Virus record (IMG/VR): IMGVR_UViG_2711768009_000009
Length of the DNA stretch: 43,679 nucleotides
Direction: 5' to 3' (one strand)
DNA from: a virus
Taxonomy: Duplodnaviria > Heunggongvirae > Uroviricota > Caudoviricetes
Below, one piece after another: positions 9,412-41,823 of this stretch. The notes under the pieces were generated by a model. The model had not been told where the DNA came from, did no database searches, and was given only the letters and a program-made list of their open reading frames with translations. The first letter of the stretch is position 1; each line of letters opens with the position of its first letter. The position numbers and the translations under genes are program-made.

Positions 9412-9668
9412 NNNNNNNNNNNNNNNNNNNNNNNNNNNNNNNNNNNNNNNNNNNNNNNNNNNNNNNNNNNNNNNNNNNNNNNNNNNNNNNNNNNNNNNNN
9501 NNNNNNNNNNNNNNNNNNNNNNNNNNNNNNNNNNNNNNNNNNNNNNNNNNNNNNNNNNNNNNNNNNNNNNNNNNNNNNNNNNNNNNNNNNNNNNNNNNNN
9601 NNNNNNNNNNNNNNNNNNNNNNNNNNNNNNNNNNNNNNNNNNNNNNNNNNNNNNNNNNNNNNNNNNNN
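9412..9668. other. Unresolved sequence (257 N) at the expected gin-proximal inversion crossover site
   Basis: N-run directly upstream of gin and adjacent to the alternative tail-fibre segment. Confidence 0.9.
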
Positions 9669-9871
9669 CCGCCATAAGACTGGGGTCGGTGACCGCACAT
9701 ATGCCCGGAACATGGGAAAGCTGGGATCTGAATCTGGGGGGCGGCAATGTTCTTACCGGAATTAAAGTACAGGATGTCGGTAAGAATACGGCAGATAACG
9801 TCGGCGGCGTGTATTACCGGCCGTTGCAGTATCTGTTAAATGGAGCATGGGTGACGGCTGCAAGTATATAA
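9669..9871 (+). CDS. Alternative tail-fibre C-terminal segment (S'v-like), 66 resolved codons on the opposite strand; silent in this orientation
   Basis: Post-gap part of ORF 9062..9871; ends ...NVGGVYYRPLQYLLNGAWVTAASI*; convergent with the S/U genes, as expected for the second variable cassette of an invertible segment. Confidence 0.4.
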
Positions 9872-9879
9872 TGATATTC

Positions 9880-9899
9880 AGAAGGCCTTCCGGCCTTCT
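9880..9899. terminator. Hairpin between convergent S'v fragment and tail fibre assembly gene (stem AGAAGGCC/GGCCTTCT, loop TTCC), T-rich on the plus side
   Basis: Perfect 8-bp stem with 4-nt loop, followed by TTATTACTG on the plus strand. Confidence 0.5.
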
Positions 9900-9902
9900 T
9901 TA

Positions 9903-10424
9903 TTACTGTGGCTGCTCAGGCCATTTAATGGCGTTAAATTCAGCTTCTGTTTTAATGGCGGGTAGTTCCATTTTCTTCACCTGACTGATGTATGCCATCC
10001 ATTGGGTAAGTGCTGCTCTGTCTTCATCGCTGATGGTGCCCAGTTGTAGCTCCGTTCTCCAGTCATTAATTTTTTCATATGCCTGATTAAGATATGACTG
10101 GCGCATTGCTTCCAGTTTTCTTGCGTAGTTAACCGGAATACGGGAGATTATGCCATTATCAAACTTCCAGTTTCCTGAAATATCCGTGCCTTCAGGGAGT
10201 TCATCGACCTCAACCACAGAAAACCCCGCAGGATACAGCGCCGAGGCGTCCTGTGATATTGAGCAGATAACGCCGCTGTCAGGTGTTATGCAAAGTTTAT
10301 ATTTTTTGGTGAATAATGGCAGGGATTCGTAGAAATCCTTACCATCTTCACTCTGGAAATACTGAACATTATTACCATATGGCATATTTTCAGGATAATA
10401 ACGGGTTATATTTTTTAGTTCCAT
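9903..10424 (-). CDS. Tail fibre assembly protein (Mu U-like), 173 aa
   Basis: ORF track; immediately downstream of the tail fibre gene; GGAGG RBS; size and position as for Mu U. Confidence 0.75.
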   Translation of the reverse strand: MELKNITRYYPENMPYGNNVQYFQSEDGKDFYESLPLFTKKYKLCITPDSGVICSISQDASALYPAGFSVVEVDELPEGTDISGNWKFDNGIISRIPVNYARKLEAMRQSYLNQAYEKINDWRTELQLGTISDEDRAALTQWMAYISQVKKMELPAIKTEAEFNAIKWPEQPQ

Positions 10425-10475
10425 AAAATCCTCCTGGAAATAAATCTGTTTTAAAATATATTATTTACTGACTAT

Positions 10476-11392
10476 TTATAACTGAGATACCGTAATCCAT
10501 GTACCTCCGACTAATTTTTGCAGGGGTCTGAATGCTATAAAATCGTTTGAAGCATCAACTTTACTGTCAATCTGCAGGCCTGCCATAACATTACCGTACG
10601 CAGAGTAATATGCCCCACCGTACATTACCTGCCTGTTCTCTGCTCCCAGCCTGATATCCTGGATATATCGGGAATCCGCATCCTGCTGTGTTATACCAGA
10701 AGTGATGTTTATGTCCTGCGTCCCGTCAAAGGGAACCCCATTAATATTTCTTGGGGTGGCGAGTCTATTCGCGGCAACGGCGGTGCCGTCCGATGGCAGN
10801 NNNNNNNNNNNNNNNNNNNNNNNNNNNNNNNNNNNNNNNNNNNNNNNNNNNNNNNNNNNNNNNNNNNNNNNNNNNNNNNNNNNNNNNNNNNNNNNNNNNN
10901 NNNNNNNNNNNNNNNNNNNNNNNNNNNNNNNNNNNNNNNNNNNNNNNNNNNNNNNNNNNNNNNNNNNNNNNNNNNNNNNNNNNNNNNNNNNNNNNNNNNN
11001 NNNNNNNNNNNNNNNNNNNNNNNNNNNNNNGCGGGACCAAGACTGTTTTTTGTGGCAAGCGTCCCCAGACCAAGATAACCACGGGCCAGACGCTGGGCCT
11101 CCGCACCGGCATCAGCAATTTCTTTCAGGTTATTTTTCCGGGAAAAGGCATTCGCAGCGATAATGGCTTTAATGGACAGCGTAAGCTGGTTTAACTGCGC
11201 CTTATCCGGCTGAATACTGGCTTCAGCCAGAATATTCAGCAGTTCGGCCTGGAGAATATTCAGCCAGTCCTGACCAATCCAGCTGATACCTTTTTGTCCG
11301 TCACCTTCGGTAAACCAGGTGGTGGTATTACTCTGCGCCGGTGCCAGCGCAGGCATATTCGCCACGCCGGAATTATTATCAACATGAAACAT
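10476..11392 (-). CDS. Tail fibre protein (Mu S-like), interrupted by an N-run; constant N-terminal part 11031-11392, variable C-terminal part 10476-10799 in a different apparent frame
   Basis: N-terminal part from ORF track 10709..11392; post-gap frame translates ...AVAANRLATPRNINGVPFDGTQDINITSG...GTWITVSQL*, a tail-fibre-like repeat region ending 50 bp before the U-like gene. Confidence 0.7.
10800..11030. other. Unresolved sequence (231 N) inside the tail fibre gene at the expected constant/variable junction
   Basis: N-run; reading frame before and after is not continuous for this length, so the gap length is probably arbitrary. Confidence 0.85.
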
Positions 11393-22724: not shown

Positions 22725-23672
22725 TTACAGATAATCCGCGACAACCAGCTCCAGCTTGCCCTTCATCTCGTTAGAGACTGTGGCGTTACCGTCTGCGAAC
22801 AGCTCGCGCTCCAGCAGCTGCACCGCCTGTTTTTCCAGCGAGGTGGGGACAACAATATGGGTGGGTTTGATGCCGAGTTTGCGGCCACCGTCAGCCTTAA
22901 AGTCACGCATGGCTGACCAGCCGTGCCACAGCGCATCCAGCGTCAGCGGTGACTGCATCATGTAGGCCATCTGCCAGAAGCCGTAGCCCACATTGCGACG
23001 GGCGGAAGCACCGAACACAAACTCGTTATCAGTAAACGCACGGCCTTCATCGACTTTTGTCTGGGCAACCAGTTCGGCTTTGCGGCGATCCTGATAAATC
23101 AGCGGTTTTACCGCGCGGGAGCAGTCAAGCAGATACCAGGCCGGGCCGCTGTAATCCGCCTGTGCACCGACAGAGCCGGTTTTTGCCACAAACATATTGC
23201 TGACCATCTGTGCATCACCGGAGCCATCCACTTTGGGGTAAACAGGGTGTTCGGTATCAAAGAAGTTCTGGCCGTCATAGCAGGCCGCATTCAGACCATC
23301 ACGCAGTGCAGCAAAGACCAGTTCATCCGGTTGTGCCGCAGCGGCACGACCCATTTCCTGGAATAACGGGGAGTAGATGCCGAGATTGTCGTCTTCAAAG
23401 TCATCGCGGCTAATGGCAACGGTGCCTTCAAAGGTTTTGTTCACGATGGCGTAGCCATAGGCTTTCATCTTCTCGATGACGCGGGAGCCGATCCACTCAC
23501 GGAACTGCGGGAACTGCCCCAGCCAGCCGTAGGTGTTGGATTTCGAGGTGGACGGCACGGTCATCGCAATTTTCTGGTACTGCGACGGAGCCATGGACAT
23601 CCCGGCCTGAAAATCAGAACGGTAGCCCGTCATCAGGGCGGTGATCATCGCCGGTGTAATCGGGGTAGGCAT
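22725..23672 (-). CDS. Major head (capsid) protein, Mu T-like (315 aa)
   Basis: ORF track; size and position after the protease/scaffold gene. Confidence 0.8.
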   Translation of the reverse strand: MPTPITPAMITALMTGYRSDFQAGMSMAPSQYQKIAMTVPSTSKSNTYGWLGQFPQFREWIGSRVIEKMKAYGYAIVNKTFEGTVAISRDDFEDDNLGIYSPLFQEMGRAAAAQPDELVFAALRDGLNAACYDGQNFFDTEHPVYPKVDGSGDAQMVSNMFVAKTGSVGAQADYSGPAWYLLDCSRAVKPLIYQDRRKAELVAQTKVDEGRAFTDNEFVFGASARRNVGYGFWQMAYMMQSPLTLDALWHGWSAMRDFKADGGRKLGIKPTHIVVPTSLEKQAVQLLERELFADGNATVSNEMKGKLELVVADYL

Positions 23673-24805
23673 TATTGCATTTCCTCTTTCATTTTCAGGA
23701 ACTCGGCTTCGGTTTTACCCAACAGACGTGCGGCGGCGATATCTTCAGCCGACAGCACAGCGGTGGCGGTCTTTTTATCCGGCACGGTTACGGTGTCGGT
23801 CTGAAGAGTGGTCAGAGCCGCAACCGGCTGGCGGGCGTCAAGCTGTGCAGAAAGTGCCGCGACGCCAATCTGTTGTCCGAGTCCTTCCATGTATCCGCGT
23901 TCGCTTTTGAAAATGCGTCCTTCGGACTCGGCCTTATCCAGCAACTGCTCCAGCGTGGTGCTGCCGTGTTGTGCCGACAGCGCGGCATATTCGGTACGCA
24001 GGGCGTTATACGTCTCAACGGGCACATATTTCGTCAGATCAATAGTGCCGCCAGTTGGTGTGCCTTTTGCGGTTTCCAGTTCTGCCGACAGGCTGGCAAC
24101 CTGCGTTTTCAGGGTGTCGTGCGCATCCGCACGGGTTTTGATCCCGGTAAGGGCAGACAGCGCCGCCGTGCCCAGTTCCGGTGTAAATTCGTCACCGTCA
24201 GCCACGGTCAGACCGAGCGCCGTCAGCAACTGGCGTAATTGCTCATTCATGGGGGATTGCTCCTGAGAAGGGGAAACGACATAGAGATCATCAGCACTGA
24301 GTGCCGCGACAGGGTTCATACCCGTAATACCCGGATCATTCGTCAGGGAAGCCATGCGCAACAGGTAGGGTTCCCCGGTGTCAGCGAAATAATGCATATA
24401 TGCAGACAGATAGGCATATTCACGGTCATCAATATGTTTTTGTGCCTGTGGTGTCCATTCAGGTTTAATGAAAATCCCCTGACCCTCACGCCATTCGATG
24501 TTTTCCGGCTTAACCCATCCTGCAGCAATAGCCTTGAATCCGTTTTTCTGCGCATTCACGGAGTGATGGTCATAATCAATCAGTAACGGCTGATGCAGGG
24601 CGGAAAGCCCGGCTTTCATCCGGTTACAGGCGGATTCGTTAATCAGCCAGCCTTCAGTCGGTTTTTCCGGGCGACCGTCACGGGCCTTTACCCGACCGGC
24701 TGGCAGTAACTGACACCATCCGTCGCCGGATGCAGTCAGCGAAGCTGAAAGCACGGCTAAACCGGAGGGGCGATTTGCGTCTTTTGGGTGATTTTCTGTC
24801 TTCAT
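23672..24805 (-). CDS. Head protease/scaffold protein, Mu I-like (377 aa)
   Basis: ORF track; size and position. Confidence 0.8.
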   Translation of the reverse strand: MKTENHPKDANRPSGLAVLSASLTASGDGWCQLLPAGRVKARDGRPEKPTEGWLINESACNRMKAGLSALHQPLLIDYDHHSVNAQKNGFKAIAAGWVKPENIEWREGQGIFIKPEWTPQAQKHIDDREYAYLSAYMHYFADTGEPYLLRMASLTNDPGITGMNPVAALSADDLYVVSPSQEQSPMNEQLRQLLTALGLTVADGDEFTPELGTAALSALTGIKTRADAHDTLKTQVASLSAELETAKGTPTGGTIDLTKYVPVETYNALRTEYAALSAQHGSTTLEQLLDKAESEGRIFKSERGYMEGLGQQIGVAALSAQLDARQPVAALTTLQTDTVTVPDKKTATAVLSAEDIAAARLLGKTEAEFLKMKEEMQ

Positions 24806-24982
24806 ACCGGCAGCATAAGCCGGGTATTTTTGGGGCTGGTTTTGCGGGACTTCAGAAAGTGCTGACAGGGGGGGAATGAGAAAGGCGCTTCACGCAGATT
24901 TTAAAGCCCGTTAAATACAGGTTAGAAAATCACGACACGCGCCTGAAGGGGGTAAGGTAATACGTTTGCATACCTTAAACCA
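24806..24982. promoter_or_regulatory. 177-bp noncoding G-I intergenic region at the prophage centre: candidate late promoter P_I and strong-gyrase-site equivalent
   Basis: Only sizeable noncoding gap in the structural module, ~18.1 kb from the left end; Mu carries its central strong gyrase site between G and I; contains hairpins and G/C runs. Confidence 0.4.
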
Positions 24983-32967: not shown

Positions 32968-33038
32968 TGTTACGCTGTCTCATGGTGTTCTCTGAGTCAG
33001 CGTAACCGTGAGGAAAAGGGGGCAGGATTTGCGGAATA

Positions 33039-33461
33039 TCAGAAAAGCCGTGGCTGCGTGCGTTCCTGATGCAGGCGACGCTGGTTGCGGATAACGGAGT
33101 AAATCTGCGTCTCTGACATCTGGTAGTGGCGGCGCAGGGTTTCAATTTTTTCGCCCTGGCTCCAGCGGGAAAAAATTTCATTATTGCGCAGTTCGGTGAA
33201 AAGGGATTCACCGACCGGGAGATAATAACCACGCCCGCCCATGTACCCGGCCTGTGCGGCTGCAACCTTACGGGCAAGCATTCCCGCCTGAGCAGGTTCA
33301 ATCCCCTGACGGTGCAGTTCAGCACTGATCACATCAACCAGGTCCCGCAGCGTGCCGGGCCAGTTCTTTTTCAGCTCATCATCAGGAATATCATCCAGAC
33401 GGTCAATCAGCGCGTGCAGCTGTTCGCTGTCACCAAACATGCTCATCTGTGTTTCAGCCAT
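33039..33461 (-). CDS. Mor/C-family transcriptional activator (140 aa); by position and size the late-gene activator C
   Basis: ORF track; C-terminal ...GGRGYYLPVGESLFTELRNNEIFSRWSQGEKIETLRRHYQMSETQIYSVIRNQRRL resembles the Mor/C HTH region. Confidence 0.75.
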   Translation of the reverse strand: MAETQMSMFGDSEQLHALIDRLDDIPDDELKKNWPGTLRDLVDVISAELHRQGIEPAQAGMLARKVAAAQAGYMGGRGYYLPVGESLFTELRNNEIFSRWSQGEKIETLRRHYQMSETQIYSVIRNQRRLHQERTQPRLF

Positions 33462-38496: not shown

Positions 38497-38724
38497 TTAG
38501 CTGACTTGTTTCGCACCAACAGAACGGCATATTCCGCTGTAAACTTCTGTCGCACCTTCGCGATCAAGTCCGGCAGATATCACCATTCGTGTGCGGTCAT
38601 TAAATTCAAAAAGTAAATCGCCACATTCTTTATTTTCGGCCAGTGAAATCACCTTCACGTTATCGAAATTAACCAGGTAAAAGCGTCCGTAAATATCAGG
38701 AATATTAAATACCGCCATAATCAC
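38497..38724 (-). CDS. Small early protein directly after B (75 aa); possibly Kil-like by position and size
   Basis: ORF track; overlaps the B stop by 4 nt; Mu kil occupies this position. Confidence 0.4.
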   Translation of the reverse strand: MIMAVFNIPDIYGRFYLVNFDNVKVISLAENKECGDLLFEFNDRTRMVISAGLDREGATEVYSGICRSVGAKQVS

Positions 38725-39662
38725 ACCTGTGAGAGTAATTCAGGGTTGGTATAAACCTCTTTAAAGGCCGCATTAATATGTTTTTCTGTCAGCGCCGCGC
38801 CTTCACCGCTGGCGGTGAGCCACGCCTGGTTAAGCGTATGTGTCAGAACGCGTAACGCTCCCGGCTTTTCAGCGATAGCCTGCATGACGGCCAGCTCGGC
38901 CTCACCACTGATCCCCCACGCCATGGCAATGGCCAGCACATCCGCCTTTTTGGCCTTGCGAAGTTGTTTTGTACGGGCAAGACGGCTGAACAGGCGCGAT
39001 AAATCATCAAAGGCGCGGCGTCCACCTTTAAACAATCCGCGCGGGTTACCAATAAGCACCATCCCGATCCCCGTGGCGTCCTGAATTGCCCGGAGTTGCT
39101 CCAGACCGTCAATACCAAGATGATCCGCCTCATCCACAATCACCAGTCCACGCGTTCCCATCAGGCGACGGCGGATGGCGCGGGATAATGCCCCTTTGTT
39201 CGCGCGGGTGTAATCAATCCCCAGCGCATCGGCCAGCTCCAGCAGACACTCCGTGACGCTGGAGTGCGCGGGTGACAGGGTGATCATCCAGGTGTTTGGT
39301 TGCTCCTGGCAGTAATTACGGGCAGTGGCCGTTTTACCCACACCCGGTACGCCCACAATAACGTTAATACAGCCCATCAGGCGAACCGCCTGAAACAGTG
39401 CGCGCAGCTCCTGGACTGTCTGAGTTTCCACAAACTGCGGCGGTTCCGGCAGTGCGCTTTGTTTATTCCAGTTCTCATACCAGGAGCGCAGGGAAGCAGC
39501 CACAGCAGCGTTATCGCCTTTATATTTTCCCTTACGGAAAGCCGATAATGTGCCGTCGGAAATTCCCGCCTCTCTGGCGATGGCATACTGCGTCAGTACG
39601 CCGCCATCAATAAGTTCATCAATGGTCTTGATTACATCGTTAATATCGGTCATATTATTCAC
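38721..39662 (-). CDS. Mu B-like transposition ATPase (AAA+), 313 aa, GTG start
   Basis: ORF track; Walker A VGVPGVGKTAT; N-terminal HTH-like region; follows transposase A. Confidence 0.9.
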   Translation of the reverse strand: MNNMTDINDVIKTIDELIDGGVLTQYAIAREAGISDGTLSAFRKGKYKGDNAAVAASLRSWYENWNKQSALPEPPQFVETQTVQELRALFQAVRLMGCINVIVGVPGVGKTATARNYCQEQPNTWMITLSPAHSSVTECLLELADALGIDYTRANKGALSRAIRRRLMGTRGLVIVDEADHLGIDGLEQLRAIQDATGIGMVLIGNPRGLFKGGRRAFDDLSRLFSRLARTKQLRKAKKADVLAIAMAWGISGEAELAVMQAIAEKPGALRVLTHTLNQAWLTASGEGAALTEKHINAAFKEVYTNPELLSQV

Positions 39663-39735: not shown

Positions 39736-41823
39736 TCAGGCCAGCGGATCACTTTCTTTTAATTTCGCTTCGAGCAGTTGCAATCCCCGCTGGAAATTAC
39801 GCTCGTATTCTTCATCAGGTTCATCGTCAGCGACCGGTTGCTGAACGGTCACCGTATTACCCACAGGGCGGTATATGTTTTCCAGCCAGGGCTCCTGCGG
39901 CTTGTGCTCCAGCACGTTGACAACCTCATCCTCGGCATCACGGATTTTTTCCTCTGCGCGTTTACGCATGCCTTTAAGGCGCTGCTGCTGTTTGTAGTAT
40001 TCCGCGCTGACAGGGAAGGCTTCGCGTTTATTGCCGTCCCATACCGCCTCGCAAATCACGCTGCCATCCGGGCGGCGCACGGTAATTCGTTCGGCATCAT
40101 GAATGTCATAGCTGATAAGTACCTTACGGCCATGCTCGTCACGCAGCTCGGGCGCGTAGTAAATATTATTCAGCCAGCGTATTTCACAGCGTCTTACAGG
40201 GCGCTCCACCATCGGCCGGAACATATCCCGCAGTTCAACATCGGACAGCCATTCAATTTCCGTGTCCTCTTCCGCCAGGCGTTTTTTTCTGAACTCCGCC
40301 GGGCTGTAATGTTTACCGTTCGGCTTCATGGGTAATTCATCGTGCGGCCGGTTGTTGTACCACTCAACACCGTCACGAATGGCATCAATCAGTTCAGACC
40401 AGGACGGTAAATCACGCATCGCTGACTGCTGCCGGGCGTTCAGCCGTTTGCCCTGTTGCAGGGCACTGAATGCCGAGCGTAAATCGCGGTTGGTTTTACG
40501 TAACGTCTCGCGATCTGCTCCTTTCCCGAAATAGGTGCGGTATTTACGGGCTATGCGCATCGGTAATGTGCGGTTAAGCCGTTCGATAATGCCCCGTCCC
40601 TGCGGATTACCGGCAATCCCTGTCGGGTGATTAATCCCCAGTCGTGGCAGTATCCCCACAATCTCCTTATCCAGGACGTCGGCGGTTTCCCCGGAGCCAT
40701 TATCCGAGTAATACAGAAACGGTTTGCCATGATGGCGAATACCGTGCTGTATGGCACCGGCTACGGCGAAAACATTTTCAGCCAGGTCAAGGCTCCAGCC
40801 CACCACAAAGCGCGTGCCACCGTCGATAACAAAGGTCACTTCCGGTGCGAATGGCCGCCCGTGAACCGGGTGCGCGCATTTCAGCTTCATGCCGTGACCG
40901 TCACCAATCCAGACATAATTCACCGGCATTCTGGACCAGTCGCGGCGCGTGAATCCCTCAAGCTGACGGTATTCACTGCCAGTTACCCGGCCTTTTTGTT
41001 TCACCACTTCCGGCAGTTTCTTCATTGCGCGGCGAATGGTGTCATAAGAGGGCATGATATCGAGCATATAAGGCTCATCAGCGTGCCGGTGCTGCCATTC
41101 AGCAACAAAATCCTCGTAAGCCTCGGTCATTGGTCGGCCGTTTGACTGGCGATACTGCGCCAGAAATTCGGGCAGCCAGTTAATATCTTCGGCTTTTATT
41201 TCCTGGCGTTTACCCGGTGCCAGTAAAAGCAGGCGTTCAGCGGCGTTCTGTGCCTTGTTAAAGGCCGCAATCCAGCGTTTCAGCGTGATTTCACTCAACG
41301 CGCGGCTGTTTCCCTTTTTGGCGTTCGCCGTCTCAACCATTGCCACAATGCGCTCGTCCAGTTGTGATCGTGCCAGGCTGTTAACGAGGAACCGGATAGC
41401 TTTAGCGCAGCTGAAACCGGGTTGTTGCGTGAATTTCAGCACCTCACTGACGATCGCAATGCGTGCGTCTGCCACCTGGCGCTGGTTTTCAGTCAGGGCA
41501 TTGAGGCGTTCGACCATCAGTTGTGGTGATCCGCGATATGCCTCCACCGCATCAACCACGGCAGACGAGCGTCTGGCCTTTGTCACCACCGGAGCCGGTG
41601 ATTCATCGGCTTTTTGCGTCATCAGTTGCAGGGCATAACGTTCGCGTAATGCCTGCTGTGTCACTTCAGGTAAACAGTCAATGCTGTATTCAAAACCTTT
41701 AGCGCCTTTCTTGCGGCGTCTGCTGGTTTCGCTGGTTGCATACTTCCTGATTGAATAGCGAACGCCTTGCTCCGTTCCCGGCATCCCCGGTAATCCAACC
41801 AGTTCTTTAACTGAAGCAAACAT
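39736..41823 (-). CDS. Mu A-like DDE transposase (695 aa)
   Basis: ORF track; size, position after ner, DDE-core-like region ...YVWIGDGHGMK... Confidence 0.9.
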   Translation of the reverse strand: MFASVKELVGLPGMPGTEQGVRYSIRKYATSETSRRRKKGAKGFEYSIDCLPEVTQQALRERYALQLMTQKADESPAPVVTKARRSSAVVDAVEAYRGSPQLMVERLNALTENQRQVADARIAIVSEVLKFTQQPGFSCAKAIRFLVNSLARSQLDERIVAMVETANAKKGNSRALSEITLKRWIAAFNKAQNAAERLLLLAPGKRQEIKAEDINWLPEFLAQYRQSNGRPMTEAYEDFVAEWQHRHADEPYMLDIMPSYDTIRRAMKKLPEVVKQKGRVTGSEYRQLEGFTRRDWSRMPVNYVWIGDGHGMKLKCAHPVHGRPFAPEVTFVIDGGTRFVVGWSLDLAENVFAVAGAIQHGIRHHGKPFLYYSDNGSGETADVLDKEIVGILPRLGINHPTGIAGNPQGRGIIERLNRTLPMRIARKYRTYFGKGADRETLRKTNRDLRSAFSALQQGKRLNARQQSAMRDLPSWSELIDAIRDGVEWYNNRPHDELPMKPNGKHYSPAEFRKKRLAEEDTEIEWLSDVELRDMFRPMVERPVRRCEIRWLNNIYYAPELRDEHGRKVLISYDIHDAERITVRRPDGSVICEAVWDGNKREAFPVSAEYYKQQQRLKGMRKRAEEKIRDAEDEVVNVLEHKPQEPWLENIYRPVGNTVTVQQPVADDEPDEEYERNFQRGLQLLEAKLKESDPLA

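Follow-up and report, generated by a model that had tools for sequence, protein, structure and literature searches.

The window analysed here, which is the whole of IMG/VR record IMGVR_UViG_2711768009_000009 (43.7 kb), is filled nearly completely by a Mu-like prophage on the minus strand. The prophage gene set includes MuA- and MuB-like genes (39736-41823 and 38721-39662, respectively), Mor/C-type regulators, Mu gp47/gp48-type baseplate genes, gin and mom. The tail-fibre locus that is the subject of this study consists of a gin-like gene for a serine DNA invertase, the constant 5' part of a fibre gene (Sc), two alternative 3' parts of that gene on opposite strands (Sv and Sv') and one U-like gene for a fibre assembly protein (chaperone, Tfa), and it is interrupted by two runs of Ns (Table 1). 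We anticipate, with a probability of roughly 0.88, that this locus is the G-segment equivalent of a Mu-like Escherichia coli prophage, flipped by Gin to swap the fibre tip, and that the N-runs are scaffold gaps over its repeat region.

Table 1. Features of the tail-fibre locus, in window coordinates
Feature	Position	Strand	Remarks
gin-like serine DNA invertase gene, 190 aa	8845-9417	-	first two codons hidden in N-run 1; residues 3-190 visible
N-run 1, 257 N	9412-9668	.	233 nt in relatives
Sv' cassette, 3' part, 67 codons and stop	9669-9871	+	from translation; ends ...GGVYYRPLQYLLNGAWVTAASI
G+C-rich hairpin, AGAAGGCC-TTCC-GGCCTTCT	9880-9899	+	between convergent Sv' and U; terminator scan (L001, L003), palindrome in window
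U-like assembly (chaperone) gene, 173 aa, own AGGAGG ribosome-binding site	9903-10424	-	Pfam Caudo_TAP 4.8e-19
A+T-rich non-coding spacer, 51 nt, Sv stop to U start	10425-10475	-	
Sv cassette, 3' part, 107 codons and stop, scaffold-joined to Sc	10476-10799	-	from translation; 100% identity to L001
Visible section of inverted-repeat arm 2	10696-10799	-	inside Sv 3' part
N-run 2, 231 N	10800-11030	.	205 nt in relatives
Sc, constant 5' fibre part, codons 1-120	11031-11392	-	runs into N-run 2

The gin product matches Pfam Resolvase (1.6e-51) and HTH_7, shares ~74% of 184 aligned residues with Mu Gin (PDB 4M6F/3UJ3, E 2.5e-88) and retains the catalytic Ser9 (RVS(9)TNDQ) and Met114. With regard to a Fis-dependent recombinational enhancer in the 5' part of the gene, conservation at third codon positions relative to Mu gin is raised in codons 1-25 and 51-70, a signal that is inseparable from protein constraint.

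The three sequenced pieces of the locus are collinear with complete E. coli genomes, two of which served as comparators: NCCP 13983 (locus L001) and DLI.5a (locus L002). Identity to L001 is 100% for the gin-side and inner pieces (for gin, over all 567 visible nucleotides), and identity to L002 is 99.7% for the Sc-side piece. The flanks of gap 1 are 100% identical to L001 3628-3652 and 3886-3910, and the 233-nt fill in relatives consists of gin codons 1-2, a 65-nt spacer, a gin-proximal gix-like site, arm 1 of an inverted repeat and the 5' part of Sv'. Gap 2 corresponds to 205 nt in all six relatives in which both flanking anchors were found. This fill contains the rest of inverted-repeat arm 2 and an Sc-proximal gix-like site, and encodes ~68 fibre codons in all (roughly aa 121-189). 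An earlier reading of the window from its letters alone (the original prediction) took the N lengths to be placeholders, and this is borne out: the N-runs exceed the fills by 24 nt (gap 1) and 26 nt (gap 2), and the fibre frame, broken with 231 N, is restored with 205 nt to give an intact 296-aa protein. Therefore, the N-runs are scaffold size estimates and not masked real sequence. The same reading held that frames are out of register across both gaps, which has a meaning for gap 2 only, as no open reading frame need span gap 1.

The two 26-bp gix-like sites of the relatives have the left half-site TTCCCGTAAACC and the GA core in common; they point in opposite directions and lie 1291 bp apart. 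The gin-side site is TTCCCGTAAACC-GA-GGTTTTCAGGAA and the site within the fibre gene is TTCCCGTAAACC-GA-CGTTATCGATAA. In L001 the former (TTCCTGAAAACCTCGGTTTACGGGAA) occupies 3724-3749, 65 nt upstream of gin, with arm 1 of the repeat at 3729-3877, and the latter (TTCCCGTAAACCGACGTTATCGATAA) occupies 5041-5066. An inverted repeat of ~150 bp, with arms that are 86-90% identical, surrounds both. In relatives with identical flanks, a gix-like site thus lies at the place where the original prediction expected the N-run beside gin to cover one. The second N-run was predicted to fall within the fibre gene at the constant/variable junction, and the fill of the relatives indeed holds that junction together with the inverted site. 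A gin promoter was not found in the gap-1 equivalent by a simple sigma-70 scan of relatives, and no conserved divergent promoter was found in the gin-gix spacer, which differs among clades. Within the same interval of L001 (3671-3868), RefSeq has a hypothetical protein of 65 aa (WP_071995513.1) encoded in the same direction as gin. Its open reading frame spans the gix site and stops 13 nt short of the gin start codon, and the O157-type locus has an annotated equivalent. The frame runs antisense to the conserved fibre repeat and is probably spurious.

A variant of the gin-side site occurs in the O157-type and CP55 loci (L018 2097-2122 and L019 2097-2122), where a 1-bp deletion in the A-run of the outer half gives CCCTGAAACC in place of the CCTGAAAACC of window-type loci L001 and L004. 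With the site thus shortened and a single orientation (tfa convergent to the fibre gene) common to at least 182 O157-type genomes, the inversion switch of that clade may be crippled.

Sc lies downstream of Mu gp48-like (Pfam Phage_Mu_Gp48) and gp47-like (annotated baseplate J/gp47) genes and is ~47% identical to Mu S residues 1-191 over ~195 residues (E 1e-48). The crossover site of the fibre gene is translated as ...FIDNVGLRETVN... and is matched in the alignment by ...FIQNLGLQETVN... at the constant/variable junction of Mu S. As in a Mu-type G segment, Sc stands outside the segment, and the two alternative 3' parts lie inside it on opposite strands. The tip of Sv is homologous to that of Mu S (5YVQ_A residues 435-502), and the tip of Sv' is homologous to that of Mu S' (8JU3) and to P1/P2-type fibre tips. 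Between the gaps we find, as originally described, the Sv end, the U-like gene and the opposite-strand Sv' end. As the window is scaffolded, Sv' is the silent cassette, and no assembly gene follows it on its own strand. In flipped relatives such as L003, Sv' is the expressed fibre end, and its ratio of non-synonymous to synonymous substitution rates (dN/dS) is 0.07. Across the two types of cassette that lack U (ending ...WVTAASI and ...WRTVSSV) dN/dS is 0.06-0.12, so that these chaperone-less cassettes are under purifying selection. The hairpin downstream of Sv' is followed by a T-run on the plus strand and is terminator-like for the Sv' direction, judging from its sequence.

In the proposed mechanism, a Gin-type serine invertase would recombine two inverted gix-like sites ~1.3 kb apart, one at the constant/variable junction of the fibre gene and the other just upstream of gin. 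Inversion would join Sc to either Sv or Sv', each a 3' cassette of ~115 codons, and would change a receptor-binding tip of ~70 residues. The tip exchange presumably alters host range.

The segment is present in both orientations among complete E. coli genomes, with 6 close relatives arranged like the window and 18 flipped. Near-identical prophages exist in opposite states (NCCP 13983 versus NCCP 13905, and FORC_043 versus FORC_029). In IMG/VR, 22 loci have U convergent to the fibre gene (the flipped state) and 6 have the other orientation. A separate scan of genome contigs with the whole fibre as query gave 11 loci, 2 of them useful. Near-identical prophages in the convergent state are also carried by O157:H7, O103:H2 and O111:H8 strains. 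The U-convergent orientation thus predominates. In one lineage a single deletion removed gin, the gin-side gix site and most of Sv, joining the 3' end of gin to the last ~70 nt of Sv (L021 1501-1810 and L102 1501-1810). This gin-less lineage comprises at least 5 complete genomes and 7 IMG/VR contigs (L024-L026, L042, L045, L051 and L052 also belong to it). E. coli M3 and S1-CAM-01-A are natural gin-less strains. Locked in the tfa-convergent state, the lineage expresses two different tips and keeps U intact.

The U product matches Mu U (PDB 5YVQ_B, E 4e-16), with 28% identity to Mu U and 32% to U', and is identical to WP_000421093.1 of relatives; dN/dS of U is 0.10-0.23. Mu-type segments carry an assembly gene after each fibre end, and here the lone Caudo_TAP gene is co-oriented with Sv only. 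Queried by tblastn with the Citrobacter Tfa and with U and U' of Mu, the prophage yielded no second tfa homologue, and N-run 1 is not long enough to conceal such a gene. This agrees with the original prediction of a single assembly gene and extends it to the whole lineage, as exactly one tfa is present in every E. coli locus that we opened and in every IMG/VR locus of the lineage long enough to show the segment. True Mu-type IMG/VR loci, in contrast, have two tfa genes between Sc and gin. Since the single tfa is found throughout the lineage, from E. coli Sp18-like prophages to Citrobacter, the layout is a stable trait and not the product of a recent local deletion. A relative in Citrobacter braakii ATCC 51113 (L006 5800-8300) has three gix-like sites and three alternative fibre ends; two of the cassettes stand in tandem upstream of a single 229-aa tfa, and the third lacks a tfa.

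How the Sv' fibre is assembled with one chaperone gene in the segment is the main matter of interpretation. We think it rather probable that one of two arrangements holds: either one generalist chaperone serves tips encoded on both strands, or inversion alternates chaperone-assisted (possibly capped) and chaperone-free fibres. The first of these is our tentative preference, held at a little under even odds. U would also serve the Sv' fibre, and signals in the spacer upstream of it would allow its expression in either orientation. Four observations lead us to it. First, U has its own AGGAGG and a spacer before it of 51 nt in the window and 79-120 nt in other lineages, compared with an S-U spacing of 2 nt in Mu. 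Second, the N-domain of U, which is the fibre-binding part as described for TfaMu (PMC9608196), keeps 72-95% identity between loci, while the identity of the linked tips is as low as 29-47%. Third, the tips without U belong to the Mu S'/P1/P2 class, which is normally linked to a Tfa. Fourth, U is intact in the gin-deleted lineage that is locked in the convergent state.

Several results weigh against a shared U. A generalist chaperone of this kind would require a promoter in the U spacer that is not recognised as such, and scans of both orientations and of the locked lineage gave no sigma-70-like motif upstream on the U strand beyond chance. The lone match (9/12, TGGACA-17-CATATT) lies across the deletion junction of L021. 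The motif TGAWWTYCCGCAAA, a candidate late promoter derived from the lys and esterase upstream regions, has 7 matches in the window versus 1.4 expected. Three of them, on the minus strand, are intergenic: the one at 8823-8836 is upstream of the esterase gene, the one at 24841-24854 of the gene at 23672-24805, and the one at 33028-33041 of the lysozyme gene. By sequence the matches are possibly C-dependent late promoters of the phage; no good match to it was found upstream of U in any relative. Finally, U of the gin-less lineage has a dN/dS of 0.13, but its dS is 0.41 against ~3% divergence in the flanks. U was therefore imported by recombination, and its low dN/dS is no proof of selection in the locked state.

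The main rival, which we consider somewhat less likely, is that the Sv' fibre needs no phage chaperone in cis, because its tip folds unaided or borrows a Tfa from another prophage. The virion would then switch by inversion from a fibre assisted, and possibly capped, by U to one that is chaperone-free. The missing promoter for U is what this explanation expects, and flipping leaves U antisense to the tail operon, with the hairpin standing after Sv'. The strong purifying selection on the Sv' cassettes and the predominance of the flipped state in lysogens fit it too, and a tfa remnant of a lambdoid prophage lies next door (window 2084-2802). Against these points, where such tips occur in Mu S', P1 and P2 fibres a dedicated Tfa comes after them, a pairing that is established for P2 H/G and Mu S'/U', and U stays intact in the gin-less lineage, where its co-transcription with the fibre is impossible. 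Either the generalist U or the chaperone-free fibre, if true, changes the textbook picture of fibre inversion in which one cassette has one chaperone.

It is very unlikely that the locus is a decayed Mu G segment that has lost U', in which the flipped state gives fibreless or non-infectious particles and the switch is of the on/off rather than the A/B kind. Mu-type relatives do have both U and U' where one gene is left here, and the variable parts have ~115 aa compared with ~330 aa in Mu. However, both types of U-less cassette are intact with the low dN/dS given above, and the layout with one tfa is kept across the range from E. coli to Citrobacter. The flipped state is moreover the commoner one, and it is fixed in a gin-less lineage that has spread and exchanged tips. 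The near-identical flipped prophages of the O157:H7, O103:H2 and O111:H8 strains argue for infectious particles as well, and we infer that the flipped state yields them; a dead cassette or an on/off switch is unlikely.

As to why the assembly broke, short reads would not have resolved the imperfect inverted repeat of ~150 bp that surrounds the gix sites, and a culture of mixed orientation may have added to the difficulty. The longest stretch that the two repeat arms share exactly is 32 nt long (window 10768-10799), and its last base is where the inner contig ends. Draft assemblies of relatives break repeatedly at the same repeat, in line with the suggestion in the original prediction that mixed orientations or inverted repeats broke the assembly: 17 of 80 IMG/VR contigs with a related fibre N-terminus end 506-677 nt past the fibre start codon, within the gix/repeat region, so that this failure of assembly is recurrent. 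Such ends occur both in the window-type lineage and in true Mu-type phages of IMG/VR. With Ns at both of its junctions, the inner contig owes its orientation in the window to the scaffolder only.

Some points count against our interpretation of the gaps and of the segment. The letters of the window show neither a gix site nor the inverted repeat, because the Ns cover exactly those places, and the gap contents are taken from relatives throughout. Of the four gap edges, one sits at an exact-repeat boundary and the other three do not, and gap 2 reaches ~155 nt past the inverted repeat. A further cause, for example a second related prophage, may therefore contribute to the gaps. In E. coli AST46, TOE17 and DLI.5a this type of prophage is present twice, at different sites, with one copy in each orientation. 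A second copy in the strain of the window would also explain why the gaps extend past the repeat. That the N-runs have nothing to do with inversion, being deliberate masking or gaps caused by, for example, an insertion sequence, is the least plausible explanation of all: the collection description mentions a few stretches masked as N and three edges are off the repeat boundaries, but both runs cover exactly the two inverted-repeat/gix arms, unscaffolded contigs of relatives end at the same place, and the lengths of 257 and 231 differ from the 233 and 205 of relatives, with 231 breaking the frame, so that masking, which preserves length, is rejected.

Like the G segment of Mu (S, U, U', S'), the locus is located between the gp47/gp48 baseplate genes and gin. 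Its Gin is closely related to that of Mu (see above), and its sites differ from Mu gix at 4-5 positions with the GA core in common. The crossover lies in the conserved fibre motif ...N(L/V)GL(Q/R)ETVN..., and homology to Mu extends to Sc and both tips (S/S') and to U (U/U'). Unlike in Mu, the window-type segment is ~1.3 kb rather than 3 kb long, its variable parts are about a third of the length (~115 versus ~330 aa), and its inverted repeat is ~150 bp and imperfect (86-90%) rather than 34 bp. It also has one tfa, preceded by the 51-120-nt spacer, in place of two, and it carries cargo genes (SASA/DUF6645 esterase, DUF1378 and DUF826) between gin and mom.

Another close system is that of the Sp18-type Mu-like prophages of enterohaemorrhagic E. 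coli (the name comes from the O157:H7 Sakai genome), whose loci we examined in strain PA20 and others. They share the gene order and the one-tfa invertible segment at 80-89% nucleotide identity and occur in ~200 complete genomes. They differ in having other tip cassettes, in the 1-bp deletion of the gin-side gix site in some members, and in the nearly uniform, tfa-convergent orientation of their genomes. Among other systems, p15B Min, P1 Cin and e14 Pin are invertases of the Din family that exchange the 3' ends of tail-fibre genes, and the segments of P1 and e14 have one tfa per cassette, unlike the window-type segment with its one cassette lacking a tfa. The C. braakii relative, with three crossover sites and three cassettes, resembles a small version of the multiple-inversion Min region of p15B. 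Carotovoricin Er (Ein; Nguyen et al. 2001, cited in PMC4272514 and PMC13195805) reportedly has a small invertible segment that exchanges only short C-terminal fibre ends; the segment, of ~0.8 kb, is said to lack a chaperone gene, and it belongs to a P2/pyocin-type tailocin, not a Mu-like phage.

As far as these sequence comparisons reach, the locus works like the Gin/Hin/Cin/Pin (Din) inversion systems and belongs to them, and it departs from the Mu-type G segment in one defining feature, a chaperone gene for every cassette. Programmed inversions of tail-fibre genes are well known and have been catalogued (PMC9881135, PMC4272514 and PMC5903667). Our searches of the accessible literature turned up no account of the one-chaperone layout, though such prophages have long been in the databases. 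This is therefore a known kind of system with an undescribed one-tfa variant, a modest addition, and the N-runs are an ordinary artefact.

For the annotation of phage genomes, a Mu-type fibre gene that breaks off after ~520-680 nt, at a contig end or at one of a pair of N-runs, is the sign of an invertible segment and not of a truncated gene, and the scaffold orientation of such a segment is arbitrary. About 4% of complete E. coli genomes, many enterohaemorrhagic strains included, carry the compact single-chaperone G segment. Together with its natural gin-less lineage, this segment is a ready system in which to ask whether tips of the Mu/P2 class fold without a dedicated Tfa and whether one Tfa serves several tips, questions relevant to fibre and tailocin engineering.

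The cargo genes between gin and mom (window 4479-8759) are typical of Shiga toxin (Stx)/lambdoid phages. They encode a SASA-type sialate O-acetylesterase of 684 aa with a C-terminal DUF6645 domain (6705-8759), a DUF1378 protein (6378-6572) and a DUF826 protein (6088-6342). The Mom-family gene (4479-5411, 310 aa) has a non-coding stretch of 676 nt upstream of it (5412-6087). Beyond the right end of the prophage (299-4260) are a gene for a NEL-type E3-ligase type III effector with leucine-rich repeats (299-2014), the remnant of a lambdoid tail-fibre N-terminus (2753-3748) and an IS66 transposase fragment (3802-4260). The DUF4376/tfa-like remnant at 2084-2802, also outside the prophage, is 53% identical to Mu U residues 86-145. 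Besides the two N-runs, the window has one N, at 2371, which lies inside the DUF4376 open reading frame and is consistent with a draft assembly.

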